64,000 bases of DNA from an uncultured Smithella sp. (GCA_964547345.1 CAZJMX010000005.1:64678-128677), one strand, 5' to 3'; counted from the first letter of the stretch, positions 31,308 through 49,664 are shown. Numbers and translations: made by a program. Notes: generated from the sequence alone by a model not told the origin.

Positions 31308-31380
31308 GGCAAATGTTTTTATCCTTCTTGTGTCATAAAATCAAGCCAAGCGTTTATGTAAATATTTTTTCAAATATTTC

Positions 31381-31409
31381 TTGACAATCGGTTTGTTGAC
31401 CGCTAGAAA
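31381..31409 (+). promoter_or_regulatory. Candidate sigma-70 promoter for atpE (TTGACA, 17-nt spacer, TAGAAA)
   Basis: Motif match only. The same TTGAC-N16/17-TAGAAA layout occurs at 38964-38991. Confidence 0.35.
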
Positions 31410-31521
31410 TAGAGTCAAATGACCGGCAGTCGTTAAATTTCGGGGAATGGAGGTCGAAAAAATAAAACACTTGGCGATTCCGGAAATGAAATGAGTCATA
31501 ATAAAAAACAGGAGGCTTTAA

Positions 31522-31893
31522 ATGAAAAAGAGTTTAGTTTATTCCGTGTTGGCGATGGTATTGGTGATTGTTTCCGCTCCCTTTGTTCTGGCGGCTCCGG
31601 AAGCAGCTGCGGCTCCCGCAGGTGTGGTTGATTATACAAAAGCAATCATCGTCGGTTGTTCTTTGCTCGCGGCAGGCATTGCCATTGCTTTCGGAACCAT
31701 CGGAACCGGTAACGGTATGGGTCAGGGCTTGAACGGCGCAACAAACGCTGTTGGTAGAAATCCTGAAGCTCAAGGCAAAATTCTTCTTACCATGATGGTT
31801 GGTCTGGCCATGATTGAATCTCTGGCGATCTACGCGCTGGTTATTGCGCTGATCGTGCTTTACGCCAATCCGCTACTTAAGTATATTGGCTAA
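31522..31893 (+). CDS. atpE: F0F1 ATP synthase subunit c with a roughly 35-40 aa signal-peptide-like N-terminal extension
   Basis: GTGNGMGQG...RNPEAQGKILLTMMVGLAMIESLAIYALVIALIVLYANP is the c-subunit hairpin. A strong AGGAGG RBS precedes ATG 31522, and the N-terminus is MKKSLVYSVLAMVLVIVSAPFVLAAPEAAAAP. Confidence 0.9.
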   Translation: MKKSLVYSVLAMVLVIVSAPFVLAAPEAAAAPAGVVDYTKAIIVGCSLLAAGIAIAFGTIGTGNGMGQGLNGATNAVGRNPEAQGKILLTMMVGLAMIESLAIYALVIALIVLYANPLLKYIG

Positions 31894-31906
31894 AATTTTA
31901 TTGATA

Positions 31907-31944
31907 TTATAAACAGGGAGGGGGAGCGTACATCGACTTTCTCT
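31907..31944 (+). terminator. Rho-independent terminator after atpE
   Basis: gggagggggag / ctttctctccc stem (with G-U pairs) followed by TTTTTT. Confidence 0.7.
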
Positions 31945-32042
31945 CCCTTTTTTGTGAAACTTCAATTCCGGAAGCGAAGCGCATTGGAATTGGTTAGTTG
32001 AACAATCCCGCCGCCGCGGGATTCATGCCGGCTGAATCGACC

Positions 32043-32450
32043 CTATCCATCTACGTCAACTTTTACCCGAAGACCTTTCGTTTCCGAACGCTTGTGCTTT
32101 CCCTCAAGCATCTTTTCTTTAGCTCGGGCGCTGCGTTTTCTTTTCTGACGCCGGATTTTTTCAATCTTTTCTTTTTCGGCGGCGACAAATCCCGTTTGCT
32201 GCTGTTCAATTTTATCCAGAAGCAGACGACGCGCCAGATGACGATTCAGGGTTTGTGATCTTTCCTTTTGGCATTTTACGGAAAGACCGGTGGGGATGTG
32301 GACGAGATGAACACAAGAAGAAGTTTTATTGACTTTTTGACCGCCGGGGCCGGAAGAACGGACGAAGGATTCCTCGAAATCGTTTTCGGAAACACCAAGC
32401 TCCTGCATTCTGGAAGCCAGCGCTCTTTCTTTTTCAGCGGATACCGGCAT
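32043..32450 (-). CDS. Class I release-factor-domain protein, ArfB-like (GGQ peptidyl-tRNA hydrolase with a basic C-terminal tail)
   Basis: SSGPGGQKVNKTSS and a Lys/Arg-rich tail RRQKRKRSARAKEKMLEGKHKRSETK. Confidence 0.75.
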   Translation of the reverse strand: MPVSAEKERALASRMQELGVSENDFEESFVRSSGPGGQKVNKTSSCVHLVHIPTGLSVKCQKERSQTLNRHLARRLLLDKIEQQQTGFVAAEKEKIEKIRRQKRKRSARAKEKMLEGKHKRSETKGLRVKVDVDG

Positions 32451-32470
32451 GGATGGCGCCTAAAAAAATA

Positions 32471-32902
32471 TCAAGGGATGGAATAAATCTCGTCGCCGAT
32501 CAGATGAATCCAGTTTTCCGTGAGGATTTCTCTGGCTTCTTCCAGCTTATCGACGCCCAAAATGACGATGGTTTCTTTACCGATCCGGTCAATGGTCGTA
32601 TAAAGATAAAGAATGTTGATGTCCGCTTTGGCCAGCGGTTTCATGATGGCGTTGATGCCGCCGGCATGCAGGGGCACTTCTGCGGCAAGCACCGTCGTGA
32701 CTTCAAAATTAAAGTTAAAACTGTTCAGAAGCGCAGTTGCACGATCGGGATCATTGACGACCAGGCGCACCCGGCTGTCATGTTCGATGCTGGCGGCCGA
32801 TACGGCTTTCGTGCTGATGTCTTCCAGGTCCAGAATATGCGTGAGTTGGGCGAAGGAACCGGGAACGTTGCCTAATAAAACGGAAATTTGTTTAACTGCC
32901 AT
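32471..32902 (-). CDS. Tandem ACT-domain protein
   Basis: Two ACT-like beta-alpha-beta-beta-alpha-beta units (ISVLLGNVPGSFAQLTHIL... and VLAAEVPLHAGGINAIMKPLA...). Confidence 0.75.
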   Translation of the reverse strand: MAVKQISVLLGNVPGSFAQLTHILDLEDISTKAVSAASIEHDSRVRLVVNDPDRATALLNSFNFNFEVTTVLAAEVPLHAGGINAIMKPLAKADINILYLYTTIDRIGKETIVILGVDKLEEAREILTENWIHLIGDEIYSIP

Positions 32903-32911
32903 AAAATATCC

Positions 32912-33454
32912 TTAGTCGTTTTGAGCGTAGTCAAATCCGGCGGAAAATGCCTTGCGGTTGATTTCCGCGAGGGACTTTTTCTTGCTGCCCATAATTGTTT
33001 CCAGGCTTTTGAGATAGATTTCCGGAGAAATGACATTCGATTTTTTAATGAAAGCCCCCATCATGATGACGTTGGCGACACGGTTGTTGCCCAGCTCATG
33101 AGCGATATCGGCACAGGGAACGCATACAGTTTCAATATCCTGGCGGTTGGGACGCGCATCAATGATTGATGAATTGATGAAGATGGTTCCGCCGGATGTT
33201 ACTTTATTTTGAAATGAAAAAAGAGAAGGGGCATTCATGACCACGAGATAATCCGGTTCCGATGCGACCGGAGACGCAATTTCCTCATCTCCCAGAGCGA
33301 CGGTGCAGTTGGCCGTGCCGCCTCTCATTTCCGCTCCGTAAGCGGGAAGATAGGTTACGTGGTAGCCCTTGTTCATCGCGCTTTGGGCCAGACTGATGCC
33401 CATCATTAAAACACCCTGTCCGCCAAAGCCGGAAAAAATCACCTTAACGATCAT
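32912..33454 (-). CDS. 2-oxoacid:ferredoxin oxidoreductase, gamma subunit
   Basis: FSGFGGQGVLMMG...YGAEMRGG. Confidence 0.88.
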   Translation of the reverse strand: MIVKVIFSGFGGQGVLMMGISLAQSAMNKGYHVTYLPAYGAEMRGGTANCTVALGDEEIASPVASEPDYLVVMNAPSLFSFQNKVTSGGTIFINSSIIDARPNRQDIETVCVPCADIAHELGNNRVANVIMMGAFIKKSNVISPEIYLKSLETIMGSKKKSLAEINRKAFSAGFDYAQND

Positions 33455-34242
33455 GACTGGCCCTCCGCTTCTTTCTTCATCGCGGTGATATTGTCTTTAT
33501 AGACGCCGGGCGGAAATTCTTTACTCAGGACGTCGTCGATCCATTTGCAGGAGTCAATGGAGGACATCTTCCAGTTGGTCGGGCATAAGGAGAGAATCTC
33601 CACCATGGAGAAGCCTAGTCCGTCCACCTGGCATTGAAATGCTTTCTTAATGGCTTTTTTGGTCTTATTCACACCCGCCGGAGAGCTCACTGAGCATCTT
33701 TCCACATAAGTGGAGCCACCCAGCTGAGAGAAGATTTCACTGACCTTTATGGGGTAACCATCCACCGCTTGTTTACGACCAGTCGGACTGGTCGTTGTTC
33801 TCTGATTCAGCAGGGTGGTCGGAGCCATTTGCCCACCGGTCATCCCATATACGGCGTTGTTGATGAAGATGACGGTGATGTTTTCACCGCGGTTGGCGGC
33901 ATGGAGGCTCTCAGCAATGCCGATGGCAGCGAGATCTCCGTCGCCCTGATAGGAAAAGACGACCCGGTCGGGCAGCGAGCGTTTGATGGCCGACGCCATA
34001 GCCGGCCCGCGTCCGTGCGGTGCTTCGATCATGTCCACATCAAAATAATTATAGGCCAAAACGGCGCATCCCGCCGGAGGAACACCAATGGTGATGCCTC
34101 GAATGCCCATCTCATCGATGACTTCGCACGCGATACGGTGAACAATGCTGTGACCGCACCCCGGGCAATAATGATAAATATTGTGTTTTAAACTCTGGGG
34201 ATGTTGAAAAACTATTTTTGCCATGTCTGTCTGATCCTTCAA
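33451..34242 (-). CDS. 2-oxoacid:ferredoxin oxidoreductase, beta (TPP-binding) subunit
   Basis: YCPGCGH, GDGDLAAIG and NNAVYGMTGGQ. Confidence 0.9.
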   Translation of the reverse strand: MKDQTDMAKIVFQHPQSLKHNIYHYCPGCGHSIVHRIACEVIDEMGIRGITIGVPPAGCAVLAYNYFDVDMIEAPHGRGPAMASAIKRSLPDRVVFSYQGDGDLAAIGIAESLHAANRGENITVIFINNAVYGMTGGQMAPTTLLNQRTTTSPTGRKQAVDGYPIKVSEIFSQLGGSTYVERCSVSSPAGVNKTKKAIKKAFQCQVDGLGFSMVEILSLCPTNWKMSSIDSCKWIDDVLSKEFPPGVYKDNITAMKKEAEGQS

Positions 34243-34254
34243 TATGGTCGGCTA

Positions 34255-35313
34255 TCAATCTTTTTTAGTGTAAATCTTGGCGACGACGTTGGCGAGCTCC
34301 GCAGGAGTCGGAACAGCGCCTCCCGGACGTCCGTGAAAATCGATGTTGGCATAGCCTTGAAGAGCTAGGCGGACGTCTTCCAGCATTTGGCCGGTGCTCA
34401 TTTCGAAAACAAGATAATTCTTGATTTTTGAGGACATCGCCCGCAATTTCAGTTCCGGGAACGGCCAGAGCGTGATTGGACGGAAAAGACCGACTTTCAT
34501 TCCGTGGTCGCGTAACCTTTTAATAGCGCCCTTAGCGATTCTCGCTGCTGTTCCATAGGCCACAATGACCAGATCGGCGTCTTCGGTCAGATGTTCTTCA
34601 TGAAGCGTTTCGTTCTTGATGATGACTTCATATTTGCGTGCCAGTTTCCAGTTGTGCTCCTCGCTGTCGACGGGATCCAGAAGCAGGCCACGGATGAATT
34701 TGCTTTTGCCTGTGCCAGCGCCGCGCAACATGAATTTTTCCGGATATTGACGGGGGGTAGGTTGCTTGAAAACGACCGGTTCCATCATTTGTCCCATCAT
34801 ACCGTCGGCCAGAATCATCACCGGCGTGCGATACTTATCGGCCAGATCGAAGGCATCCATGGTTAAATCCGCCAGTTCCTGGCAGGTGGCCGGCGCGATG
34901 ACAATGGTGCGGTAGTCGCCGTGGCCGCCGCCACGGGTGGCTTGAAAATAGTCGCCTTGTGCTGGGCGGATGTTGCCTAAACCGGGACCGCCGCGCATAA
35001 TATTGACGATAATACCGGGAAGCTCACAGGCGGCCATCGATGAAATGCCTTCTTGCTTCAAGGACATTCCTGGGCTGGACGACGATGTCATGACGCGCGC
35101 ACCGGTGGCGCTCGCGCCTGCGATCATATTGATGGCGGCCACTTCGCTTTCCGACTGAATGAACACACCGCTTTCGGCGTTGCGCATGTGTTCGGCCATG
35201 TATTCCGTGATCTCATTTTGAGGTGTGATCGGATAGCCCGCGTAAAAACGGCAACCGGCGCGGATGGCCGCTTCTCCTATAATGTGATTTCCTGACATTA
35301 ATACTTTATTCAC
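34255..35313 (-). CDS. 2-oxoacid:ferredoxin oxidoreductase, alpha subunit
   Basis: GNHIIGEAAIRAGCRFYAGYPITPQNEI. The size (352 aa) fits four-subunit KOR/VOR-type enzymes. Substrate specificity is not assignable by eye. Confidence 0.9.
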   Translation of the reverse strand: MNKVLMSGNHIIGEAAIRAGCRFYAGYPITPQNEITEYMAEHMRNAESGVFIQSESEVAAINMIAGASATGARVMTSSSSPGMSLKQEGISSMAACELPGIIVNIMRGGPGLGNIRPAQGDYFQATRGGGHGDYRTIVIAPATCQELADLTMDAFDLADKYRTPVMILADGMMGQMMEPVVFKQPTPRQYPEKFMLRGAGTGKSKFIRGLLLDPVDSEEHNWKLARKYEVIIKNETLHEEHLTEDADLVIVAYGTAARIAKGAIKRLRDHGMKVGLFRPITLWPFPELKLRAMSSKIKNYLVFEMSTGQMLEDVRLALQGYANIDFHGRPGGAVPTPAELANVVAKIYTKKD

Positions 35314-35515
35314 GGTATACCTCGATGGCTACGTCCGGACACATCGTCGCACAGATTGCACAGCCGTTGCATTCTTTTTCATCATTGGTGCAGACGGGAC
35401 GGTATCCCTGGGCGTTAAATTCCTTGGACGTCATAATATGGCCTTTGGGGCAGAAATGAATGCAGAGATGGCACTCTTTGCAAAGCTCCTTTTTTATCTT
35501 AATATGTCCTTTCAA
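35306..35515 (-). CDS. 2-oxoacid:ferredoxin oxidoreductase, delta subunit (2x[4Fe-4S] ferredoxin)
   Basis: CKECHLCIHFCP and CNGCAICATMCP. The ORF is open to 35596, but a GGGGA RBS plus TTG at 35515 gives the usual size of about 69 aa. Confidence 0.75.
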   Translation of the reverse strand: MKGHIKIKKELCKECHLCIHFCPKGHIMTSKEFNAQGYRPVCTNDEKECNGCAICATMCPDVAIEVYRE

Positions 35516-35635
35516 AATATATCCCCAATCAGTTTTTGCCTGTGATTTAATCACTTTTGGCGGAAGGTATCTTGCGCATAATACATAGAATGTCAAGTAT
35601 TTTTAGATGAGCAACTCCAGGGGAAGGAAAACAGG

Positions 35636-36136
35636 CTAGATTTTACTGATCTGAAATCCTTCCAGTTTGATGGCCACTGAGCGCTGTAATAATTCGATGG
35701 AAATAACGAACAGTTCTTTTTCCGGATCACTTTTGACGACGGTTCCTTCGATGCCGGCAAAGGGGCCGTCAATGATCTTGGCGGCCTCGCCCGCTTTCGG
35801 GTACTGCAATGTGAAGATTTCCACTTTCTTATCCAGCAGGCGCTGAATGGCCTGTATTTTCGCATCCGGCACCGACAGAGGTTCCGCATTTTCTTTTTTC
35901 CCCAGAATGCGCACAACGCCGCACGTTTTGAGAATGGCCAGTTTAACCTCGTTATCCAGCGCGGCTTCAACAAAAATATAACCGGGGAAGAGAGGAACAA
36001 ATATTTTCTTTTTCCGGTCTTTTCGCTTGCTCCAGACCTCTATCTCCGGTAAAAACGATGTCAGTTGCTTCTGGGTCAAACCGGTGTGGGCTTTATATTC
36101 GTGACGGCTTTTTGTATGGACGGCATACCACGGCAT
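35636..36136 (-). CDS. NusG-family paralog (RfaH/UpxY-like NGN + KOW transcription antiterminator)
   Basis: WYAVHTKSRHE...PLFPGYIFVE is the NGN domain. The KOW is GEAAKIIDGPFAGIEGTVV. Confidence 0.8.
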   Translation of the reverse strand: MPWYAVHTKSRHEYKAHTGLTQKQLTSFLPEIEVWSKRKDRKKKIFVPLFPGYIFVEAALDNEVKLAILKTCGVVRILGKKENAEPLSVPDAKIQAIQRLLDKKVEIFTLQYPKAGEAAKIIDGPFAGIEGTVVKSDPEKELFVISIELLQRSVAIKLEGFQISKI

Positions 36137-36221
36137 GGCAAATCCTTTTATCGATGACGATTATATGCGAAATTTTGCCCATCACCTATAGTAAGTGTCT
36201 ATTTTTTGCAATGGAGAAATC

Positions 36222-37829
36222 ATGAAGGTTCTTCGACTCGATGGTTTAAAACTGACTTTGGATGAAACAGAGGAATGCCTTGCGGCCAAAGCCGCAAGAG
36301 CGCTGGGCATTCCGAATGGCGATATTGTCTCCTTAAACATTATTAAAAAAGCTCTGGATGCCAGACGCAGCAGGCCGCCATATTTTGTTTATGCCGTAAA
36401 AATTATTTTGTCAGATCAGGCGGTGCTGCCGGAAAATGCATCAGAGGGAATGCAGCTACAACCGCATCAAGATGAGCCGGTCATCAAGCCGTCCCCGAAG
36501 ACCTTTGCGGTGAAAAAGCCTGTTTTAGTGATCGGAAGCGGGCCGGCTGGCCTCTTTGCCGCCTATGCTCTGGCTGTCAAAGGCCTGTCCGTGATGGTTT
36601 TGGAGAGAGGCCATCCCGTCGAAAAACGCATCAAAGATGTCGAGCTGTTTTGGGAAAAAGGCACTCTTGACCCCCAAAGTAATGTTCTTTTCGGCGAAGG
36701 GGGCGCCGGCGCCTTTTCCGACGGAAAATTGACCAGCCGAAGTAAAAACCCTTATGCGGGCTGGGTGAAAAACGTGCTGGTGGATATGGGAGCGCCTGAG
36801 TCTATTCTTACGGATGCCAAACCGCATATTGGCACAGATCGATTACGTAAGGTGCTGATCAATCTTCGGCAGAGACTTCTGGACTTGGGATGTTCTCTTC
36901 GGTTTGAAGCACAAGTGACAAATGTGATCATAAGACAGGACGCGATTGCCGCAGTGATTGTTAACGGCCAGGAAGAGATTGAGACGCAGACAGTGATTCT
37001 GGCAATGGGGCAGAGCGCCGACGATACTTACCAGGTGTTGAATGAGAACGGCGTGAAAATGGAGCCCAAACCGTTTGCGATGGGCGTGCGAGTCGAGCAT
37101 CCACAGGCGCTGATCAATGAGATGCAGTATGGACAATGGTCGGGTCATCCCAAGTTGCCACCCGCCGAATATTTTGTTACGGCTGCTGTCAGCAGATCGG
37201 ATCGCTCCGTTTACACGTTTTGTATGTGTCCCGGCGGTCAGGTGATTGGTTGTAGCGCTTTCCCCGGTTCTGTGATCACCAATGGCATGAGCAACCGGCA
37301 ACGCGATGGCGAATTTGCCAACAGCGCGGTAGTCGTAAACGTGAAGGTGGATGATTTTACGTCACGGGGGGGGCCGCTGGGAGGGTTGGAATTTCGGAAG
37401 CATTGGGAGCGAAAGGCTTTTGATGCGGGGGGCGGCAATTATTGCGCTCCGGTACAGAGGCTAACAGATTTTATAAGGAAAAAACCATCCGGTGTCGTCG
37501 GGAGGACAAGCTTTCTGCCGGGTGTAAAATCTGCTTCTTTATCGGAGGTCTTGCCGATCTTTGTCACGGACGCCCTTTGTGACGGTCTAAGACAGATGGA
37601 CAGGAAAATGTCCGGTTTTGCTTCACAGGAAGCTTACCTGATCGGCGTTGAGACCCGAACATCTTCGCCCGTGCGGATTTGCCGGGGTTCCGATGGTCAG
37701 AGTGAAAACGTGAAGGGACTTTACCCCTGTGGAGAAGGCGCGGGTTACGCCGGGGGGATCATCAGTTCGGCGCTCGACGGCATCAGGGCCGCGCAGAATG
37801 TCATTGAGGCAGCAGGCGGCTGTCAATAA
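36222..37829 (+). CDS. FAD-dependent oxidoreductase of the uncharacterised COG2509-like family
   Basis: Dinucleotide-binding VLVIGSGPAGLFAA, GEGGAGAFSDGKL and a C-terminal GEGAGYAGGI. The start is at ATG 36222 (ggag RBS), and the ORF is open from 36195. Confidence 0.8.
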   Translation: MKVLRLDGLKLTLDETEECLAAKAARALGIPNGDIVSLNIIKKALDARRSRPPYFVYAVKIILSDQAVLPENASEGMQLQPHQDEPVIKPSPKTFAVKKPVLVIGSGPAGLFAAYALAVKGLSVMVLERGHPVEKRIKDVELFWEKGTLDPQSNVLFGEGGAGAFSDGKLTSRSKNPYAGWVKNVLVDMGAPESILTDAKPHIGTDRLRKVLINLRQRLLDLGCSLRFEAQVTNVIIRQDAIAAVIVNGQEEIETQTVILAMGQSADDTYQVLNENGVKMEPKPFAMGVRVEHPQALINEMQYGQWSGHPKLPPAEYFVTAAVSRSDRSVYTFCMCPGGQVIGCSAFPGSVITNGMSNRQRDGEFANSAVVVNVKVDDFTSRGGPLGGLEFRKHWERKAFDAGGGNYCAPVQRLTDFIRKKPSGVVGRTSFLPGVKSASLSEVLPIFVTDALCDGLRQMDRKMSGFASQEAYLIGVETRTSSPVRICRGSDGQSENVKGLYPCGEGAGYAGGIISSALDGIRAAQNVIEAAGGCQ

Positions 37830-38892
37830 TGACATCGGGACCTTTTCTGAAAATCCGGCGAACGGACAAAAGTTTTGCCTTGTCCAGATTCCGAATCTTC
37901 AAATCGCCTACCGCTTCTATCCCCTGTCCGATTATTTTAGGCGCTATAACCGTGACCAGACGATTCACCAGATTATCCTTCAGCGCAGATGTAATGATTT
38001 GAGAGCCGCCCTCAATCAAAACAGAGGATATTTTGCGGGTTGCCAACATCGACAACATCTTTTTCAAATGAACATGGCCGAACTTGTCGGCGGCAACCGT
38101 GATGATTTCTGCACCTGTCGCAGCCAGTTGACGGAATTTTTTATCCGAAGCCTTTCGGGTTGTAACGATCAGTGTCGGCGTCCGGGAGAGATTTTGCATG
38201 ACGTTGGCGTCAATCTTGATTTTCAGGCCGGAGTCCACGATAATTCTCAAGGGATTGCGTCCCCGAACCCGTCTGACCGTCAGTGTCGGATTATCCGAAA
38301 GAACGGTACCGATACCCACAAGAATCGCATCATGCTCGGCTCGCAGTTTGTGCGCAAAGGCAAGGGAGGCAGGGGAACTGATCCACTGAGACCGTCCGGT
38401 TTTCGTCGCTATCCGCCCGTCGAGGGTTTGGGCATATTTCACGGTTACATAAGGCAGTCCGGTTTCCATATAATGAAAGAAGACTTCGTTGAGATTGCGG
38501 CATTCATTTTCCAAAACTCCGGTCGTTATCTCGATTCCCTCCCCTTGCAGGCAATGGATCCCCTTGCAGGAAACCAGTGGATTAGAGTCTGTCGAGCCGA
38601 TGACGACGCGTCCGATTTTATGACGGATGAGAAGATCTGTGCAGGGTGGCGTTTTGCCGTGATGACAACAGGGCTCCAAAGTTACATAAAGTGTTGCGTC
38701 TGCAACATTTTCTGTAGAGTTCCGAATTGCGTTCACCTCGGCGTGATTTAGTCCGCAGCATTCATGATAGCCCTTTCCGATAATTCGGTCTTTCTTCACG
38801 ATCACAGCTCCGACCATCGGGTTGGGGCTTGCATAACCCCTGCCCTTGGCAGCCAGCTTTAAAGCCAGTTTCATATAATGCTCATCTGTCAT
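37801..38892 (-). CDS. ribD: Bifunctional riboflavin biosynthesis deaminase/reductase RibD
   Basis: Deaminase HAEVNA...PCCHHGKTPPC and reductase GGSQIITSAL. Its 3' end overlaps the convergent FAD gene by 29 nt. Confidence 0.95.
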   Translation of the reverse strand: MTDEHYMKLALKLAAKGRGYASPNPMVGAVIVKKDRIIGKGYHECCGLNHAEVNAIRNSTENVADATLYVTLEPCCHHGKTPPCTDLLIRHKIGRVVIGSTDSNPLVSCKGIHCLQGEGIEITTGVLENECRNLNEVFFHYMETGLPYVTVKYAQTLDGRIATKTGRSQWISSPASLAFAHKLRAEHDAILVGIGTVLSDNPTLTVRRVRGRNPLRIIVDSGLKIKIDANVMQNLSRTPTLIVTTRKASDKKFRQLAATGAEIITVAADKFGHVHLKKMLSMLATRKISSVLIEGGSQIITSALKDNLVNRLVTVIAPKIIGQGIEAVGDLKIRNLDKAKLLSVRRIFRKGPDVIIDSRLLPQ

Positions 38893-38963
38893 AAATAGTA
38901 ATTACCCCAATGATTAAATCAATGCAAAGAATTTTTTTTGTGATGATAATCACAATATTTTTA

Positions 38964-38991
38964 TTGACTTCTGACGAAAAAAGAGTAGAAA
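38964..38991 (+). promoter_or_regulatory. Candidate sigma-70 promoter driving the riboswitch leader (TTGACT, 16-nt spacer, TAGAAA)
   Basis: Motif match only. It would place the transcription start near 38998. Confidence 0.3.
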
Positions 38992-38997
38992 AGTGGG

Positions 38998-39090
38998 CGA
39001 AGCTTGCAAAAGGGCAAACCGCCTGAAAAGACGGGACGCAAAGTTACTGGCCTAAGTCATGATGGGATAGGGCGGCAGGACTGCCGGGCA
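38998..39090 (+). promoter_or_regulatory. c-di-GMP-I (GEMM-I) riboswitch-like aptamer
   Basis: AAAGGGCAAACC-GCCU-GAAA-AGAC-GGGACGCAAAGUUACUGGCCUAAG... carries the hallmark GGGCAAACC, a GNRA-capped hairpin, GGGACGCAAAG and GGCCUAAG elements, in the same order as the Vibrio Vc2 aptamer as I recall it. The 3' half could not be folded confidently by eye. Confidence 0.7.
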
Positions 39091-39153
39091 TTTATGAAAT
39101 AAAGTCCAGCAATCACCAGATTATCCCGTAAAAAATGAAGAAAAGCAGAGATC

Positions 39154-39921
39154 GTGTATATGATTTTAGAATTGTTTGCTTTCATTTTTGGCGCTGTTGT
39201 CGGCAGTTTTCTGAATGTCTGCATTTTCCGCATTCCCGCAAATGATTCAATCGTTAAGCCTTTATCACAATGCCCTCATTGTCATCACCCGATCCGTTTC
39301 TACGACAATATTCCCATCATCAGCTTTATTTTTTTGCGGGCGAAATGTAGGGACTGCGGCGAAAAGATTTCCTGGCGTTATCCTCTGGTCGAACTGATTA
39401 CCGCCCTATTTGCCCTGCTGCTCTTTGTGAAATTTGGGCTGACCCTCAATTTTTTTGTGTTTTTTATTTTTACGGCCGTTTTGGTTGTCATTACCTTCAT
39501 CGACCTGGATCACCAGATTATTCCTGATGTTTTGTCTTTGCCCGGCATTCCTGTTTTTTTCCTGGCAGCAATATTTATCGTTAAAATTCCCTGGAGCGAA
39601 GCGCTTATTGGATTATTGATAGGCGGCGGCGTCCTTTTCCTCATTGCATTCGTTTATGAATTCATAACCAAACGCGAGGGCATGGGCGGGGGCGATATAA
39701 AGCTTCTGGCCATGATTGGCGGTTTCTTAGGTTGGAAATCATTGATCTTTATTCTGTTATTCAGTTCCTTTGCCGGCGCCCTGGTTGGGGGGGCGGCGAT
39801 GATTATTAACAAGAAGGATATGAAATACGCTGTGCCGTTCGGACCTTTTTTATCTGCCGCGGCAGTAGCCTACATCTTCTTAGGGGACATGTTTATGAGG
39901 TTTTTACTTTTTGGCTACTGA
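39154..39921 (+). CDS. pilD: Prepilin peptidase / N-methyltransferase (A24 family, PilD)
   Basis: GSFLNVCIFRIP, zinc-ribbon CPHCHH...CRDCG, and catalytic Asp contexts (FIDLDHQIIPD, GMGGGDIKLLAMIG). The start is GTG 39154 or ATG 39160. Confidence 0.92.
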   Translation: MYMILELFAFIFGAVVGSFLNVCIFRIPANDSIVKPLSQCPHCHHPIRFYDNIPIISFIFLRAKCRDCGEKISWRYPLVELITALFALLLFVKFGLTLNFFVFFIFTAVLVVITFIDLDHQIIPDVLSLPGIPVFFLAAIFIVKIPWSEALIGLLIGGGVLFLIAFVYEFITKREGMGGGDIKLLAMIGGFLGWKSLIFILLFSSFAGALVGGAAMIINKKDMKYAVPFGPFLSAAAVAYIFLGDMFMRFLLFGY

Positions 39922-39958
39922 GTAAAATAAATACTGTGAATAGCCGAGATTAGAAAAA

Positions 39959-39974
39959 AGGCACACGTTTTGCT
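39959..39974 (+). promoter_or_regulatory. Sigma-54 (-24/-12) type promoter upstream of the minor-pilin genes
   Basis: aGGCACacgttTTGCt. GG at 39960-61 and GC at 39972-73 have the canonical 10-nt spacing, 40 nt upstream of ATG 40013. Confidence 0.5.
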
Positions 39975-40012
39975 GTTTGTTAAGTACTGATAAGGTGTAG
40001 ATAAGGCGCATT

Positions 40013-40504
40013 ATGAAAATTAGCAATAAAAACGGATTCAGTTTAATCGAAATGATGATCGTGATAGCCGTTTTGGGAGTCGTCCTGGCGATAGCGGCGC
40101 CGAATTTTACCGAATATCGGGATCGAACCAATCTGAAGGAATCGGCGAGGGATATATCATCAGACATTGTTCTCTATAAACAAAAGGCTGTGTCTGAAAA
40201 TGTAACCTATCGGATAACATTTGATGCCGTGGGAAATAGTTATACGGTGGAGAAACAAACTTCGCCGGGCGTCGCGACTTGGGATACAGTAACAACCAAA
40301 ACCGTCGGGCAGAGTAATGCGGCAATCAAGCTTCTTTCTGCACCCTCTTTTTTCCCACACGCAGACGCGACATTAGATCTTTATTCAAGAGGGACATCAG
40401 GAAACGGCACCATTGAGATTAAGAATGATAGATTACCATTATTAAAAGCGGTTATAACAGCGACATCAATGGGGAGAGTTTATGTTAAGTATGAAGATAT
40501 TTAG
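40013..40504 (+). CDS. GspH/FimT-family pseudopilin (type IV minor pilin)
   Basis: Prepilin leader and cleavage/methylation motif KNG/FSLIEMMIVIAVLGVVLAIAAPNF. Confidence 0.8.
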   Translation: MKISNKNGFSLIEMMIVIAVLGVVLAIAAPNFTEYRDRTNLKESARDISSDIVLYKQKAVSENVTYRITFDAVGNSYTVEKQTSPGVATWDTVTTKTVGQSNAAIKLLSAPSFFPHADATLDLYSRGTSGNGTIEIKNDRLPLLKAVITATSMGRVYVKYEDI

Positions 40505-40931
40505 TAATGCTAAAGGAATATCATTGGTCGAATCAATGATTGCCGTTTTTCTGACAGGGATTGCCATTGTGTCGCTCATGCCGATGCAGACCATGTCGAT
40601 GCAAACGATGGGGAAATCCGATTATTTAGGTCGGGCGGCGGGCATTATGCAATCGGATTTGGAGAGAAAGGAACATGAATTGATGCGCACGGGGTTGGGT
40701 TTGGTCTCATTTGGAACAGTTTTAACCCCTGTCTTAGGAAGTTTCGGTGTCGCAGGTGTCGAGGGGGATGCGAATTTTTTAGTTGCCACAACAACTTCTG
40801 AATCGTCGCCAGTCACTATACCCAGGTCCTACATCGTTCACGTTCGCGTAACCTGGCCCGGCAATGCCACGGGAATTGCCAGTTCGATCAGAGTAACGCA
40901 TCAATCTAATTTTGATCCAGCTATTGAATAA
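40482..40931 (+). CDS. pilV: PilV-like minor pilin
   Basis: AKG/ISLVESMIAVFLTGIAIVSL prepilin motif. An alternative start is ATG 40491. Confidence 0.7.
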   Translation: MLSMKIFSNAKGISLVESMIAVFLTGIAIVSLMPMQTMSMQTMGKSDYLGRAAGIMQSDLERKEHELMRTGLGLVSFGTVLTPVLGSFGVAGVEGDANFLVATTTSESSPVTIPRSYIVHVRVTWPGNATGIASSIRVTHQSNFDPAIE

Positions 40932-40971
40932 CTGGATCAAAATTTTTATGAGACCGGGAAAGAGATTGATT

Positions 40972-41688
40972 ATGAGAAACAGAGGATTTTCGTTAGTCGA
41001 AGTGTTGATTGCGATGGTGGTCGGGGCGATTATCATGGCTGCTGTTTACGGTGTGATGAACATGTCTCAGCGTTCGTCATCATCGATTGACCGGAAGACC
41101 ATTACGCAGCAGGACACCCGATCTATCTTAAATCTGATGGCGGTAGAAATCCGCATGGCTTCATACAATCCGACGATGAGACCATACACCTGGTCAAATG
41201 CGCCGACCTTAGTGTCTTGTTATGTAGGAGAGGAGTCATTCAGGGGAATTCGGATTGCCAAAGACAGTCAAATTGCAGTCGCGATGGATATCACCCCTGG
41301 TTACGGAGATGGTGAGATCGGCAGCAGTCCCAATGAATACATTATTTATACCTATAATCCAGGAACTAAATCAGTTACACGAAATGTGAGTTGTGGCGGT
41401 GCTGCAGCGCTTTTAGGAGGAACAGCATTATACACCAACGTAATCAATGCGGAAGCGGGGGTTCAGATGTTTCGTTATTTCGGTGCAACCGACAATGAAA
41501 TAACGGGCAGCGTCGATGCCAATCCAAGTGCTGATAGCGGAATACCTGCCATTCGGAGGGTGTTGATTACTTTAGTTGTGGAAACGAAGGATCCCGATTT
41601 ACTGACGGGACAAACAAAAAAAATGGTTTATTCAACCAATGTAATTTTGAGGAATCATGTCAGCAATGAAAACAAAGATAATCCATAA
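40972..41688 (+). CDS. pilW: PilW-like minor pilin
   Basis: MRNRG/FSLVEVLIAMVVGAIIMAAV. The ORF is open from 40912. Confidence 0.75.
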   Translation: MRNRGFSLVEVLIAMVVGAIIMAAVYGVMNMSQRSSSSIDRKTITQQDTRSILNLMAVEIRMASYNPTMRPYTWSNAPTLVSCYVGEESFRGIRIAKDSQIAVAMDITPGYGDGEIGSSPNEYIIYTYNPGTKSVTRNVSCGGAAALLGGTALYTNVINAEAGVQMFRYFGATDNEITGSVDANPSADSGIPAIRRVLITLVVETKDPDLLTGQTKKMVYSTNVILRNHVSNENKDNP

Positions 41689-42127
41689 GCGATATCATGC
41701 ATCTGAAGGTGGCTTCGTCCTGATTGCAGCCCTTATGGCGGTGATGATCATGATGGCGGTCGGGTTTTTCTCTCTGACAGTGACGTCGCAGGACATCCGC
41801 ATTAGTGCAAGACTGGTTGGCGACCGCAAAGCTTTCTCTGCTGCTGAATCCGGTCTGCACTGGCTCACGGTATCCTTTAGCCCTGGCATGCCTGCCGTAT
41901 CAAATGAGCAAGTTGATCCGACCAACGATCCTACAGTGCGCTATTCAACTACTGTGCCGGCCATCAATCAGATCATGCCGACAGTGCCAAAGACGCGTTC
42001 TAGTGAATATAATCAGCTTGTTTATAATTCACGCGTTACAGGCCGCGATACCAGTTTCGATTCCAATGTCGTTTTGGAAATTGGGTTAGGTCATGGTAAT
42101 GTTCCGAGAGATACGGGGTATCGTTAA
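41657..42127 (+). CDS. pilX: PilX-like minor pilin (PilX N-terminal domain)
   Basis: EGG/FVLIAALMAVMIMMAVGFFSL followed by SQDIRISARLVGDRKAFSAAESGL. Confidence 0.7.
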   Translation: MSAMKTKIIHKRYHASEGGFVLIAALMAVMIMMAVGFFSLTVTSQDIRISARLVGDRKAFSAAESGLHWLTVSFSPGMPAVSNEQVDPTNDPTVRYSTTVPAINQIMPTVPKTRSSEYNQLVYNSRVTGRDTSFDSNVVLEIGLGHGNVPRDTGYR

Positions 42128-42216
42128 GTAGACTGTGTTAATGACTATTCAAATGAGCAATGTGTTGACTGGTTCAAGGGTTGTTAATCATTCACATCAT
42201 AAGGAGAATAGATAGT

Positions 42217-45200
42217 ATGTTGAGAAAAAGTACAATTTTGGGGTTTATCGTCATCCTCAACCTTCTATTATCTGCCAATGTTTTTGCCCAGGGCGATGAG
42301 GATACTTTCCAATCGGTTGCACCGGATGCTTTGGTTTTAATCGACTTGTCTGGCAGTATGGAATGGAATCCGGTGGGGGGAAGTAATATTTGGGGTGCCA
42401 ATTCTTCGTGTACTGGTACTTTTAATAGTTCAAAAACGGCTTCATATCCTTACAATTGCAGCCGGTTGGAAATAGCCAAGCGAGCGATTTTCGCTGTTTT
42501 AGACGATGATCGCAATAATGTTATCAATAGTCAGGATTCTGCAAGTTTGGGAATCAGGATCGGATACATGCGTTTTTATAACGCAAGTTCCGAAGCCTCT
42601 CCGGGTATAAGGCGGGTTCGGGATATCAGTCCTCTGGGCAGTATTGGCACAGGAACATCCTATCAGACTACATTTTGTGGGGCAGCCGCAGTCGGAAGCT
42701 GCTCTGCGCCGAGTACCGATGGAATATGTACCTCGTCTTATATGGGTACCGGCAGTGAAACTATTCGCAATGCCTGTGCGACCGGTGGAACGCCTCTACG
42801 TGCGGCATTAAAACAAGCGAAAGTATATTTAGATACGCACAAAGCAGCCGATGTACAGGCCAATTCGTGCCGGCAGAAGTTTGTTATTGTAATCACAGAT
42901 GGTGCGGATACGTATGCCTGTAGTGGAAGCGGCGCTGAATGCCAAGGGCAAATGTATGAGCGCCGAAGGGCGGTCGTTGCCGCTACCAAGGAACTGGCTG
43001 ATGCAGGCTATAAGGTGTTTGTTATCGGATTGGGTGCGGGTATGCCTTCATATCTGATCAATACGTTAAACTGGATGGCCTATTATGGCGGAACCATAAC
43101 TGATCCTACGATTACCCCTCCATCACCGGTTGGTTATTATATTCCTAACGGCTGCAATGCTGATCCTGCCGTGCCGTCGGACTGCTGCCTGGATGCGACC
43201 AATAACGCTTACGCTGCCGTTTGTTACCCGGCGGGTATCACCAGTTGTATGGTTGATGCAGCGCCACTGACTGCCACATGCTACAGTGGTGGAGCCGGCT
43301 CGTCCATCACAAATTTCAGGGCAACCAATAATGATCCCGGCTATATTTCGCTCGCGGGATACGCCTTCATCAGCGAAAACGCTGACGATTTAACCAGTGC
43401 TTTGAGAGTTGCTCTGGGTGCTATTGGGTCTACGGCTTATTCTTTTACGCAATCATCCATTCAGACGGTGCGTACCATTGATGAAAATTATCTCTATGAA
43501 GCGACGTTCACGCCTTTGATGATGACACGCAATGATTCTCTCTGGCCTGGTTCGCTCAAGCGATATGCCATCAGCGGCTTAGGTGAGATTTCCCCCACGG
43601 CGGATTGGAACGCAGGCGCAGTATTGAAATCTACGACAGCGGCCAACAGAAAAATCTATACCTATAAATCCGGAGCCATGACGGAGTTCAATACGACCAA
43701 TATCACCCAAGCGGATCTAGCACTCACCGGCCCGACGGCGGAAGCCATGAGGCAATTAACCATCTTGTTCCTTCGGGGTGGCGAACAATCGGGTGCTCAT
43801 GTCAATTGGAAGCTTGGTGATATTTTTCACAGTTCACCCATTACGATCGGAACACCATCCGCGTATTTCTACGATACGGTGGATAAAAGCGCCATTCGGG
43901 CTTTCGATACTTACCGGTTTGCCAATATTCGGACAACGGCAAATGGCAAACGCATAGTTGTCGCGGGTGCCAATGACGGTCAATTTCATGTGTTCAAGGC
44001 CGCCGACGCCGGAAGCGGAGGAGGCGCGGAGTTCTGGAGTTTTATTCCGCCGAATTTTATGCCACGACTGCCTAGTGTTGCCCATAGCACCCACCCGACA
44101 TCATGTAGCCATCAATACTTTGTTGACGGACCAACTTCTGCCTATGATGTTTGGCTGCCCGCCGCGCCAAGCAATGGGAACGCGAAGAATGCAGCGGATT
44201 GGAAGACTTTACTAATGCTTAGTGAAGGTCGCGGCGGAGTGGCCAATCTGTGGAGTTCTTCATCCTCCTGCGATACGGGGTTCAGCAGCGTTTATTCAGC
44301 TACCTATCGCTACTACTGCGGATATTATGCTTTAGACGTGACCAGTCCGACAGCCACTCCGCCAACGTTAAGATGGATCCTGGGAGGGGCGGCCGGTTTG
44401 TCTGCAACTAATGGAAGCCACCTGGGGCAACCTTGGAGTAAAATGGCCATGGGACGCGTTAGAGACGGCGCGAATGAAATTTGGCTCGGTTTTATCGGTG
44501 GTGGCTATGCGGCGACAGACTGCGCGGGAGCTGGAGTTTGTGATACAAAGGGCAAGGGCTTTTATACAGTGAAATTGACCGACGGCTCCATCTTCTGGTC
44601 TTATACGCACAGCGGCAACGACACAACGCTAGCTTATAGCATGCCGGGTCAAGCGAATATTATGGACATTGATAATGATGGTTTTATTGACAGAGCCTAC
44701 ATCGGTGATCTCGGGGGGAATGTATGGCGCTATAAATTCTGTCGGGCGCGTGACCCTGGCTCCTGCACTTGGACCGGAAAAAAGTTCTTTGATTCTACGT
44801 CCGGATTGATCAGGCCCATTTATTCGAAACCAGCTGTTGCGAGGGATCGCAAAGGAAATCTATGGGTTTATTTTGGAACGGGCAATGTCAATGATCCGAC
44901 GTCCCCTGGCACAGTTGATCGTTTTTACGCAATTAAAGATGTAAATGCCGTACAGACCTTCGTGACAAGCAATTTAAGAGATGTCACATCAACTATTTTT
45001 AATCCCTCGGATACGGAAAGAAATGGCTGGTATGTCCAGTTTCCCGCCGGGGAAAAAATGTTATCGGATTCGCTTGTTTTTGAGGGTGTTATTTACTTCA
45101 CCACCTATACGCCTCCAGCCAGTGGAAATATCTGTGATATGAGCGGTATTGCGAAACTTTATGCGATTAACTATGTGACCGGTAAAGGAATGTGGACAGA

Positions 45201-45390
45201 GGAGGGTCAGCGTTCAAAAGTTATCGGCTCGGGTGTAAGTTCTGTTCAGGTCTCCATCAATCCGGTTTCCGGCGAAGGGGAGCTTTTTGCTGTAACCAGC
45301 GTTGGGGGAACGCAAAAGGTTGATAAGCCTGTTTTGCCTCCAATCAGCGAAACTGAATTGCTTTACTGGCGGGATATGCGTATCGACTAA
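42217..45390 (+). CDS. pilY1: PilY1-like tip adhesin with an N-terminal von Willebrand A domain and a C-terminal beta-propeller
   Basis: Signal peptide MLRKSTILGFIVILNLLLSANVFA. MIDAS motif DLSGSM...GGTPL...ITDGADT. PilY1 C-terminal motifs are GANDGQFHVF and the Ca-loop-like DIDNDGFIDRAYIGDLGGNVWRY. The ORF is open from TTG 42181. Confidence 0.85.
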   Translation: MLRKSTILGFIVILNLLLSANVFAQGDEDTFQSVAPDALVLIDLSGSMEWNPVGGSNIWGANSSCTGTFNSSKTASYPYNCSRLEIAKRAIFAVLDDDRNNVINSQDSASLGIRIGYMRFYNASSEASPGIRRVRDISPLGSIGTGTSYQTTFCGAAAVGSCSAPSTDGICTSSYMGTGSETIRNACATGGTPLRAALKQAKVYLDTHKAADVQANSCRQKFVIVITDGADTYACSGSGAECQGQMYERRRAVVAATKELADAGYKVFVIGLGAGMPSYLINTLNWMAYYGGTITDPTITPPSPVGYYIPNGCNADPAVPSDCCLDATNNAYAAVCYPAGITSCMVDAAPLTATCYSGGAGSSITNFRATNNDPGYISLAGYAFISENADDLTSALRVALGAIGSTAYSFTQSSIQTVRTIDENYLYEATFTPLMMTRNDSLWPGSLKRYAISGLGEISPTADWNAGAVLKSTTAANRKIYTYKSGAMTEFNTTNITQADLALTGPTAEAMRQLTILFLRGGEQSGAHVNWKLGDIFHSSPITIGTPSAYFYDTVDKSAIRAFDTYRFANIRTTANGKRIVVAGANDGQFHVFKAADAGSGGGAEFWSFIPPNFMPRLPSVAHSTHPTSCSHQYFVDGPTSAYDVWLPAAPSNGNAKNAADWKTLLMLSEGRGGVANLWSSSSSCDTGFSSVYSATYRYYCGYYALDVTSPTATPPTLRWILGGAAGLSATNGSHLGQPWSKMAMGRVRDGANEIWLGFIGGGYAATDCAGAGVCDTKGKGFYTVKLTDGSIFWSYTHSGNDTTLAYSMPGQANIMDIDNDGFIDRAYIGDLGGNVWRYKFCRARDPGSCTWTGKKFFDSTSGLIRPIYSKPAVARDRKGNLWVYFGTGNVNDPTSPGTVDRFYAIKDVNAVQTFVTSNLRDVTSTIFNPSDTERNGWYVQFPAGEKMLSDSLVFEGVIYFTTYTPPASGNICDMSGIAKLYAINYVTGKGMWTEEGQRSKVIGSGVSSVQVSINPVSGEGELFAVTSVGGTQKVDKPVLPPISETELLYWRDMRID

Positions 45391-45430
45391 CAAAAGATAG
45401 ACCGAAATTTAGAGGAATAGTTCAACTGGC

Positions 45431-45472
45431 AATGACAAGCGGCTAATGATAAAAGCCGCTTGTCATTTTTTT
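45431..45472 (+). terminator. Rho-independent terminator ending the pilus operon
   Basis: A 13-bp stem (aatgacaagcggc / gccgcttgtcatt) followed by TTTTT. Confidence 0.85.
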
Positions 45473-45496
45473 ATATGAAAGGTTTTGATATTGTCC

Positions 45497-47161
45497 ATGA
45501 AAAAGAAACTGATTGATATGATTGCCAAGACTGTGACGGCTTGCAGCGAGAAAGGATTGCTTCCCGCCGTCAATCTCTCGCAGATTGAAATCGAAGTGCC
45601 GGCAAGTCCGTTGCATGGAGATTATGCCTCCAATGTGGCCATGATTCTGGCGTCTCAGGCCAAACAAAATCCCCGCAAGATTGCCCAGGCCATCCAGGAT
45701 AATTTTTTGGATACGGAAGGCATTATTGAAAAAACGCAAATCGCCGGCCCCGGTTTTCTGAATTTTTTTATTAAGGATCCTGTCTGGCAACAGGTGCTCC
45801 AAACCATTCTTGACCAAAATGATCGATACGGGTTTGTCGATATCGGACAGGGGAAGAAGGTCCAGGTGGAGTTTGTCAGCGCCAATCCTACAGGACCCTT
45901 GCATATCGGCCATGCACGTGGCGCCGTCGTGGGGGATGTGCTGGTGAATCTGCTGACATCTGCCGGATATAGGGTTTCTAAAGAATACTATATTAACGAT
46001 GCGGGCAATCAGATGAATAATCTGGGCAAATCCGTGTGGTATCGATACCGGGAAGGGCAGGGCGAAGTGATCGAATTTCCGGAAAACTGCTATCGCGGTG
46101 ACTATATCAGGGACATCGCGCTAGATATCATTAAAAAAGATGGTGCAAAATATCTGACGGCCAACGAACGCGACACGATCACGTATTTTAACACGGTTGC
46201 CGGCAGCCGGATTCTTGATGAAATCAAGCAGGATTTAAAAGATTTTGGTGTGACGTTCGATTGTTATTTCAGCGAGAAAGAATTATACAAAAACAACGGT
46301 GTGAGCGATTTGCTGGCGTCTTTGCAAAAGCAGGGTTTTATCTATTCCGATGGTGAAACTCTTTGGTTTAAGACGACCGCGTTTGGTGATGAAAAAGACC
46401 GGGTGGTGATTCGAAAAAACGGCGAACCGACTTACTTTGCCGCCGACATCGCCTATCATAAAAACAAGTTTTCGCGCGGTTTTGACATCCTGATCGATAT
46501 CTGGGGCGCGGATCATCACGGGTACATGCCCCGCCTCTGGGCGGCGGTTCAAGCCCTCGGACACCAAAAAGAAGAGTTAAAAATCATTCTGGTGCAACTG
46601 GTGAACCTGCTGCGCGCGGGCGAGCCGGTGGCGATGTCCACGCGCTCCGGTGAGTTTGTCACGCTACGGGAAGTGCTCGACGAAGTGGGAAAGGATGCCG
46701 CTCGTTACAATTTCCTGATGCGCCGGTCGGACAGTCATCTGGATTTTGATCTGGAGCTTGCCAAAAAGCAGTCCAATGAAAATCCGGTCTACTATGTTCA
46801 ATACGCGTATGCCCGGATTTGCAGCATTATCCGCATGGCGCAGGAACGAGGAGTTGCCCTGCCGGTCTATAACGACATCAACCCATCACTTTTGGAAGAG
46901 CCGGAAGAGCGGACGCTGATCAAGATGCTGGCTCGCTATCCGGAAATGCTCGAAGGCGCGGTAAAGTCACTGGAAGTCCATCGCATCACGTTCTATCTTA
47001 ATGAACTGGCGGGAATCTTTCATAGTTATTACAATAAAAATAAGGTCATCACGGAAAATAATGATCTGACCACTGCGCGGTTGGTGTTGGTTGATGCCAT
47101 TCGCATTGTGATCGGCAATGCCCTGAAAATATTAGGTGTCAACGCGCCGGAAAAGATGTAA
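45497..47161 (+). CDS. argS: Arginine--tRNA ligase
   Basis: [15 protein letters not shown] (HIGH) and the C-terminal anticodon-binding domain. The ORF is open from TTG 45485. Confidence 0.96.
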
Positions 47162-47230
47162 GAGCATTCCGCAATACATTGGCCGTGAGCGATTCATCAA
47201 GTAGGAAAAGACTCCTTGCGGGAGGAACGA

Positions 47231-47998: not shown

Positions 47999-48013
47999 TT
48001 GAAGGCGTAAATT

Positions 48014-49342: not shown

Positions 49343-49409
49343 AATCAAATAAACTGTGATAAAAAAATTATATATTACTATCGTCGAAGGAGGTTTTAAG
49401 TAAAACTAA

Positions 49410-49664
49410 ATGGCAGTTAAAATTCGATTAACTCGTATGGGCGCGAAAGGTAAACCTTTTTACCGTATTGTCGCTGCGGATAAAGAATATCCTCGTGATG
49501 GAAAATTTTTGGAAATATTAGGGAACTATGACCCCAAGAAGAATCCGGCGGAAATTTCCTTAAAAGAAGATCGTGTGCGCGATTGGCTGTCCAAAGGCGC
49601 AAAACCGACCGTGACGGTTTCTCATCTGCTGAAAACAAAAGGCATCGCAGCCAGCGCTAAATAA
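49410..49664 (+). CDS. rpsP: 30S ribosomal protein S16
   Basis: MAVKIRLTRMGAKGKPFYRIVAAD. Confidence 0.97.
   Translation: MAVKIRLTRMGAKGKPFYRIVAADKEYPRDGKFLEILGNYDPKKNPAEISLKEDRVRDWLSKGAKPTVTVSHLLKTKGIAASAK

Follow-up and report, generated by a model that had tools for sequence, protein, structure and literature searches.

The 64,000-nucleotide (nt) stretch of DNA analyzed here derives from an uncultured Smithella sp. (GCA_964547345.1 CAZJMX010000005.1:64678-128677) and is referred to below as the window, with positions counted from its first letter. It carries ribD (37801-38892, minus strand; Pfam deaminase and RibD_C) and pilD (39160-39921, plus strand) as divergent neighbors. The gap between these genes, given as 260 nt in an initial annotation made from the sequence, is 261 nt to an in-frame GTG at 39154 and 267 nt to the ATG at 39160, the likely pilD start; homologues start at the equivalent ATG. 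On the plus strand of this gap, the same strand as pilD and directly upstream of it, positions 39002-39089 would form a functional cyclic di-GMP (c-di-GMP)-I, or GEMM-I, riboswitch aptamer with which, right at the 5' end, an mRNA coding for pilD, four minor-pilin-like genes, and pilY1 begins in a Smithellaceae (Syntrophales) bacterium, a reading to which we assign a probability of about 85% from the sequence. The initial annotation proposed such an element at 38998-39090, within a few bases of these limits, which include the closing helix P1. The RNA class is known and this is a new instance of it, in a new host family, in a somewhat new gene context, and with an atypical, terminator-less platform.

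A scan of the whole window with Rfam 15 (cmscan) returns RF01051 (c-di-GMP-I) at 39003-39088 on the plus strand, at 70.6 bits (far above the gathering score of 35) and with an E value of 7.9e-12, one of only two Rfam matches above gathering score in the 64 kb. The match spans model positions 1 to 87 of 87 with a single 1-nt deletion, located in the second-hairpin loop, and RF01051 is the retained best match of clan CL00126, rather than the variant family RF03167 (c-di-GMP-I-GGC). RF01786 (c-di-GMP-II), which had been named as a negative control, has no match in 38850-39250 in a permissive Rfam scan (E up to 10), and neither does any other cyclic-dinucleotide family; besides RF01051, that interval yields just sub-threshold noise from eukaryotic small nucleolar RNA and small RNA families. 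A covariance model that we built from 29 MAFFT-aligned homologous leaders scores the window aptamer at 98.4 bits. At the sequence level the element agrees with RF01051 in score, hairpins and linker, receptor, compensatory changes, contact nucleotides, and 5' position.

The conserved blocks quoted in the initial annotation (GGGCAAACC, GCCU-GAAA-AGAC, GGGACGCAAAG, CCUAAG, and the 3' half) are present as stated. P1 pairs 39002-39005 with 39086-39089 and is short (4 bp) and G-U rich. The first hairpin (39019-39034) is capped by a GAAA tetraloop (39025-39028), and the junction pairs G39014-C39039 and C39015-G39038 adjoin the AAA linker (39040-39042), which lies within ACGC-AAA-G at 39036-39043; both the tetraloop and the linker block are invariant in the 29 aligned sequences. 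The second hairpin occupies 39042-39082 and contains a tetraloop-receptor-like internal loop (39051-39072) with CCUAAG (39051-39056) opposite AUAGGG (39067-39072). The loop departs from the 11-nt GAAA receptor by one base, and several homologues have the canonical UAUGG 3' half. A GNRA loop, a near-invariant AAA linker, and an 11-nt receptor where the loop is GAAA are GEMM features from the original description (PMC1950547).

Numbering of the Vibrio cholerae Vc2 aptamer was mapped through the Rfam consensus and the Vc2 sequence, which places the G20 equivalent at G39013 (model position 11, directly 5' of the model pairs G12-C37 and C13-G36) and the C92 equivalent at C39085 (model position 84). 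A39040, the first A of the linker, we take to be the A47 position. In Vc2, A47 intercalates between the ligand bases. All three equivalents are invariant in the 29 aligned leaders, including the G20 equivalent (29 of 29), whose retention had been pointed out from the window alone. A47 contacts the ligand (PMC5888326), and G20 reads G-alpha on its Hoogsteen edge while C92 forms a Watson-Crick pair with G-beta (PMC6140456). The second key nucleotide of the Clostridioides difficile Cd1 aptamer, 'G11' (PMC9262584), fits the same consensus position as G39013.

Homologous leaders back the GEMM-I fold by covariation. A PilD scan with one genome per species gave 80 loci, and our model finds the aptamer directly upstream of pilD in 32 loci (the window and 31 other Smithellaceae genomes) at 79-115 bits, with a weaker match in one more distant Syntrophaceae genome; PilD loci below ~60% identity lack it, except L039 (see below). 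On comparison with Rfam, each of five homologues matches RF01051, at 73-78 bits in four cases and 63.7 in the fifth. The aptamer lies ~57-97 nt from the pilD start in 31 loci (71 nt before the ATG in the window) and 159 nt away in L043. Pairs were counted as the Rfam GEMM-I pairs plus the 4-bp P1, on a MAFFT alignment not fitted to structure, and 96.1% of pair cells are paired in the 29 sequences, versus 31-46% in controls where the 3' partners were displaced by 1-3 columns. Two-sided changes are seen in 6 of the 24 aptamer pairs, for example at columns 56/88 (G-C in 13 sequences, A-U in 9, and G-U in 6) and columns 28/37 (C-G in 9, U-A in 9, and U-G in 7), and the covariation score is reached by 0 of 500 shuffles.

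A promoter-like, sigma-70-type TTGACT-N17-TATAAT is conserved in the homologues just upstream of the aptamer. Its counterpart in the window is a putative -35 hexamer, TTGACT (38964-38969), in a column conserved as TTGAC(T) in the 29 homologous leaders, followed after 16 nt by a putative -10 hexamer, TAGAAA (38986-38991), where most homologues have TATAAT or TAAAAT; a consensus scanner did not call this putative promoter because the -10 is degenerate. The transcript is predicted from these hexamers to start at ~38998-39000, 2-4 nt before P1.

The 3' 28 nt of the aptamer can pair alternatively with the next 40 nt, and minimum-energy folds together with comparison across leaders define an anti-aptamer (competitor) hairpin at 39062-39129 on the plus strand. 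It is built in tiers, AUGGGAUAG/UUAUCCCGU, GG/CC, GA/UC, UGC.GGGC/GUCC.GCA, and an apical AUUUAU/AUAAA stem, and takes up the 3' strand of the second hairpin, the 3' strand of P1, and the equivalents of C91/C92. The 3' strand is shared, and aptamer and hairpin are therefore mutually exclusive. In the window the unconstrained minimum-energy fold, which contains the hairpin, is at -34.8 kcal/mol, versus -21.8 kcal/mol with the aptamer enforced. Across the 32 leaders the core helix UGC.GGGC/GUCC.GCA is 92% paired and the basal helix CAGRA/UYCUG 78% paired, with one basal pair alternating between A-U (13 sequences) and G-C (8 sequences), and the apical stem keeps its pairing although its sequence changes between clades. 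When homologues were folded one by one, 17 of 20 formed the same tiered hairpin, most z-scores lying between -1 and -4. In 24 of 32 leaders the P1 3' strand finds its partner downstream, 23 of 30 folds pair the aptamer GGGAUA with an AUCCC downstream of it, and the hairpin ends 30-45 nt before the AUG, short of the ribosome-binding site. The initial annotation had treated the expression platform as unresolved; the platform is not empty, as it holds this conserved hairpin.

We note that RNAalifold proposes a further small local hairpin, GGCGG-CAGGA-CUGCC, in the 3' part of the aptamer (39072-39085 in the window; homologue columns 82-96). The C91/C92 equivalents would be occupied by it in yet a third manner, and its variation is confined to one side (C-G/U-G and G-U/A-U/G-C).

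These structures suggest how the leader could switch. Binding of c-di-GMP would lock P1 and the second hairpin and so prevent the anti-aptamer hairpin from forming; without ligand the hairpin would win, the nearest-neighbor model favoring it by ~13 kcal/mol in the window. A ligand-dependent choice between aptamer and anti-aptamer hairpin, which we infer from these folding models, is the only half of the mechanism to which we commit.

Several findings weigh against a functional riboswitch that controls this operon. P1 has 4 bp with two G-U pairs, and although 91% of its cells are paired, the variation is mostly one-sided, with a two-sided change in just one pair. De novo RNAalifold on whole leaders does not return the complete GEMM fold, recovering the first hairpin and parts of the second; the long anti-aptamer hairpin is not recovered either. 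Another fold takes the place of that hairpin in the predictions for 3 of 20 homologues, and covariation of the hairpin is modest, with two-sided changes at 3 pairs, a result that 49 of 500 shuffles also reach. Five close relatives (L010, L022, L024, L025, and L032) lack the aptamer and have other genes inserted upstream of pilD; since pilD is otherwise in place, the element is dispensable. Co-transcription of pilD, the minor-pilin genes, and pilY1 would follow from same-strand spacing only, namely 91 nt between pilD and the next gene, with overlaps from there on. Lastly, the familiar output devices are missing. The initial annotation saw no clean terminator, and a terminator scan indeed finds no terminator-like site in 38800-39300; the tails that follow the hairpin are A- or C-rich and lack a U-tract, both in the window and in all 20 folded homologues, and unpaired probabilities of the Shine-Dalgarno region (-16 to -7) and the AUG, compared in 32 leaders between the full leader and the leader with the aptamer treated as folded, show no consistent shift, with a predicted mean of ~0.44 in both states (our own average over the 32 leaders).

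An intrinsic terminator after the aptamer is thereby rejected, as the G+C-rich hairpin with an immediate U-tract that marks a rho-independent attenuator is absent; in a wider scan (30000-49999) sites occur just at the level of shuffled sequence, which leaves no local standard for comparison. Sequestration of the Shine-Dalgarno sequence or start codon is likewise rejected, and a local hairpin over GAGAUCGUGUAUAUGAUUU in the window is present in both states and not conserved. Two anti-Shine-Dalgarno candidates fail on comparison. The conserved GUCCAGCA (GUCCAG), pairing with CUGGA/UUGGA near the start codon, suits L013 and L017 but only part of the set, failing in the window clade and in the L008 and L016 groups; the downstream UCCC run has inconsistent complementarity to the Shine-Dalgarno-like GGGA/UGGA and is the run that pairs with the aptamer GGGAUA in the 23 folds mentioned above. 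A P1 formed with a downstream CAGCA in place of CGGG was also rejected, as its registers are inconsistent between clades on inspection of the alignment.

Repression by a hairpin lacking a U-tract would have to draw on factor-dependent termination, on pausing, or on RNA processing; the output may also be of another kind, for instance through RNA stability. We tentatively favor an ON switch, in which c-di-GMP raises expression, because the two-element topology is that of the Geobacter pilM switch and because no third downstream element, terminator or Shine-Dalgarno-sequestering, was found, as an OFF switch would need. A further and rather improbable proposal is that the Smithellaceae have a terminator-less GEMM-I platform whose hairpin is read by Rho/NusG-type factors or by RNA processing and which gates a pilus priming module of prepilin peptidase, minor pilins, and PilY1. 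If so, the second messenger would control pilus initiation, and hence partner attachment or interspecies electron transfer, and gating of the priming module would be a regulatory logic distinct from the control of major pilin and assembly platform in Clostridioides and Geobacter.

The alternative that survives best keeps the same c-di-GMP riboswitch with the opposite sign, and we consider it possible but doubtful. Here the ligand would free the hairpin 3' arm (GUCCAGCAAUCACCAGAUUAUCCCG, YC-rich), which together with the A-rich leader would give ~70 nt of unstructured RNA on which Rho could load, terminating before or within pilD; without ligand the arm would be hidden in the hairpin. Such a Rho-dependent OFF switch fits the mutual exclusion of hairpin and aptamer and the finding of neither intrinsic terminator nor Shine-Dalgarno sequestration, the lack of which is typical of Rho-coupled riboswitches such as those of mgtA and ribB. 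It also fits the excess of C over G in most leaders (19.7% versus 15.2% overall), unlike the window as a whole, in which G slightly exceeds C. However, this bias is weak, with a C over G of 0.92 for the window itself, A is the main base of the leader (39%), and the free stretch is short for a Rho utilization (rut) site, so rut-like composition is kept as a rival explanation only. The c-di-GMP-II switch before C. difficile pilA1 is, moreover, an ON switch. Characterized cyclic-dinucleotide switches before pilus genes are ON switches, Geobacter pilM being an example (PMC9262584), which speaks against the Rho-dependent OFF switch.

As to what the aptamer would sense, the initial annotation argued for c-di-GMP rather than 3'3'-cyclic GMP-AMP (3'3'-cGAMP), and as far as sequence allows this is supported by the invariance of G39013 and C39085. 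We infer c-di-GMP because position 20 is G: the cGAMP-sensing GEMM-Ib RNAs have A there (A14 in Gs1761; PMC6140456), a mark of cGAMP switches also given in PMC9262584, whereas the window has G, as do all 29 aligned homologues. Some doubt stays with the ligand, since changes low in P2 are reported to affect selectivity too (PMC9262584). It is very unlikely that the aptamer senses 3'3'-cGAMP or another cyclic dinucleotide, in the manner of the Geobacter GEMM-Ib RNA or the c-di-GMP-I-GGC/UAU variants. A related Syntrophaceae genome (L039) does carry an RF03167 variant upstream of its pilD orthologue, but the best clan member for the window is RF01051 and no variant family, and wild-type Vc2, with G20, binds cGAMP at ~10 uM versus picomolar for c-di-GMP (PMC6140456).

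Least probable of all is that the element is a decaying relic, or a stand-alone short RNA (for instance a c-di-GMP sponge ending at the hairpin) with no control of pilD: its loss in five relatives, substitutions at the C46 and C91/C92 equivalents in the homologue L006, and the lack of a recognizable output element point that way, but they are set against strong purifying selection with compensatory changes in 32 species-level genomes, a fixed position before pilD, a promoter that is conserved while none other is evident ahead of pilD, and a hairpin without the U-tract that would set a short RNA's 3' end.

Individual loci depart from the common arrangement in several ways. A same-strand gene ending ...IPYSWERKDG* abuts pilD, with the aptamer gone, in L022 (6880-6960), L024 (6900-6950), and L046 (upstream of 7001). 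L022 retains the distal part of the old leader, CAAUUCUGUUUAGCAUUUC ... AGAUUGGAAUCAAGCC-AUG, which suggests that the deletion or insertion took just the promoter and aptamer. The insertions in L010, L025, and L032 are of other small genes. The L006 aptamer (23-117; Loclat_bin-13126) has ACGAAAAG in place of ACGCAAAG, losing the C46 equivalent, and CUGUAGG in place of CUGCCGG, losing the C91/C92 equivalents; it scores 82.7 bits with our model and is probably a decaying or re-specified copy. In L039 (Syntrophaceae bacterium UBA6252, DJVQ01000025.1) the match at 6479-6556 is to RF03167, at 68.7 bits against a gathering score of 59, and not to RF01051; this element has a GUAA loop, lacks the receptor, and lies ~420 nt upstream of a pilD orthologue with 60% identity, so a second Syntrophales lineage couples a GEMM-type RNA to pilD.

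The window aptamer shares with the RF01051 type examples, Vc2 and Cd1, the full model, the two hairpins and AAA linker, the GAAA loop with its receptor-like partner, the equivalents of G20, A47, and C92, and a 5' regulatory position on the strand of the gene. Unlike the type examples, it has neither an intrinsic terminator nor a Shine-Dalgarno-sequestering helix, and neither its gene context (pilD, minor pilins, and pilY1) nor its Smithellaceae syntroph host is among the studied RF01051 examples. Cd1 is a terminator-based OFF switch (PMC9262584).

A closer parallel is the GEMM-Ib RNA of Geobacter metallireducens pilM, a 3'3'-cGAMP ON switch before pilMNOPQ, which likewise stands before genes of type IV pilus biogenesis, in a bacterium formerly placed in the Deltaproteobacteria. 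The 3' strand of that aptamer goes into the terminator, and binding is lost once the ligand-pairing C has been captured (PMC9262584). The two are alike in that an alternative hairpin from the aptamer 3' strand captures the ligand-pairing C and is exclusive with the aptamer. They differ in that the specificity position is A in pilM, a cGAMP sensor, and G in the window, in that the pilM hairpin is a rho-independent terminator whereas the window hairpin lacks a U-tract, and in that pilM controls the assembly platform whereas the window genes code for a peptidase and a tip/priming complex. The C. difficile pilA1 c-di-GMP-II switch has an unrelated fold (RF01786, not matched in the window) and controls the major pilin. 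It is alike in that c-di-GMP acts directly, by way of an RNA, on the expression of type IV pilus genes. PMC9262584 mentions that c-di-GMP controls the pili of C. difficile.

Association of GEMM with pilus genes has long been established: Table 2 of Weinberg et al. 2007 gives cpaA, pilM, pilO, pilQ, and pulF as GEMM-associated (PMC1950547), of which cpaA is of the prepilin peptidase gene family, although operons of pilD, minor pilins, and pilY1 are not named in that list. Hairpins competing with the 3' side of the second stem were noted in the same work, where they were counted as predicted terminators with trailing U's in 78 of 322 GEMM examples (PMC1950547); the absence of a recognizable platform is therefore common in the class. 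Our literature search found nothing on GEMM in Smithella or Syntrophus and no pilD/minor-pilin/pilY1 operon named as a GEMM target, and the sole paper found that names GEMM and PilY1 together handles each separately (PMC2996986).

Knowledge of the riboswitch class itself is unchanged by this instance, the pilus association having been known since 2007. What the locus would add is a direct and testable link from c-di-GMP to type IV pilus initiation genes in Smithella-type syntrophs, which are hard to culture and in which pili are discussed with regard to aggregation and interspecies electron transfer. This one leader is, in addition, available in 32 natural variants, a comparative set for a GEMM-I switch without intrinsic terminator or obvious Shine-Dalgarno sequestration, a category to which most GEMM representatives belong and which is poorly understood.

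The genes behind the aptamer bear out the pilD/minor-pilin/PilY1 cluster of the initial annotation; all on the plus strand, they code for a prepilin peptidase, for four pilin-like proteins that carry class III signal sequences, and for PilY1. PilD, a prepilin peptidase/N-methyltransferase, matches Pfam A24_N_bact (7.3e-37) and Peptidase_A24 (1.1e-23); the exact protein is found on metagenome contigs only, and PilD homologues with a source name are from Smithellaceae, Smithella, or Syntrophaceae. It is followed by a FimU/GspH-like minor pilin (40013-40504; N_methyl, 5.9e-9; N terminus ...NG/FSLIEMMIV), a pilin-like gene in the PilV position (40482-40931), which has no Pfam match and is placed by its conserved position and class III signal-like N terminus (...KG/ISLVESMIAV), and a minor pilin in the PilW position (40912-41688; N_methyl, 1.7e-9; ...RG/FSLVEVLIAM), which probably starts in truth at an internal ATG, downstream of the TTG listed. 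Class III N termini are thus seen in these three small proteins (G/FSLIE, G/ISLVE, and G/FSLVE), and the fourth (G/FVLIA) is the PilX-like minor pilin (41657-42127; PilX_N, 2.7e-5), which at 24.5 bits falls below the cut-off of 25.5 and is conserved in position. The PilY1-like pilus-tip protein (42181-45390) has a T4P_PilY1 beta-propeller match (6.1e-15), and its start is likely an ATG ~12 codons into the listed open reading frame (ORF), followed by a signal peptide. Next, also on the plus strand, is argS (45485-47161; Pfam). The order is conserved among the loci: a nusG-like gene (minus), a gene for a flavin adenine dinucleotide-dependent protein (plus), and ribD (minus), then aptamer, pilD, minor pilins, pilX, pilY1, and argS.

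The remainder of the window is housekeeping in character (mutL, miaA, valS, nadC, birA, coaX, coaE, ffh, rimM, trmD, and thrS), and Pfam annotation of 50 ORFs gives no GGDEF, EAL, HD-GYP, or PilZ domain. Three genes from the riboswitch, at 35636-36136 on the minus strand, lies a gene for a 166-residue NusG/KOW protein outside any secE-nusG-rplK context; it appears to head a minus-strand string running into 2-oxoacid:ferredoxin oxidoreductase subunits (34255-35313, 33451-34242, and 32912-33454), and its position is conserved in nearly all of the Smithellaceae loci. It may be a specialized NusG paralogue.

Some features lie farther from the pilus locus. The ~3.1 kb between nadC and birA (11330-14448) has no Pfam-matched ORF of at least 150 residues, just short overlapping ORFs, and no Rfam match at gathering score. 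It opens with a 31-nt inverted repeat (11326-11356 and 11368-11398; 87% complementary) that straddles the nadC stop, and a perfect 14-nt inverted repeat follows at 11446-11478. The only tRNA gene of the window, at 59871-59945 on the plus strand between a CDP-alcohol phosphatidyltransferase gene and thrS, is tRNA-Val(GAC) by ARAGORN and scores 63.5 bits with the Rfam tRNA model. A 1,456-residue ORF at 20269-24639 on the minus strand has BadF/BadG/BcrA/BcrD ATPase and DUF2229 (coenzyme A [CoA] enzyme activase) domains, a set typical of activators of the 2-hydroxyacyl-CoA dehydratase or benzoyl-CoA reductase type and consistent with a syntrophic fermenter.

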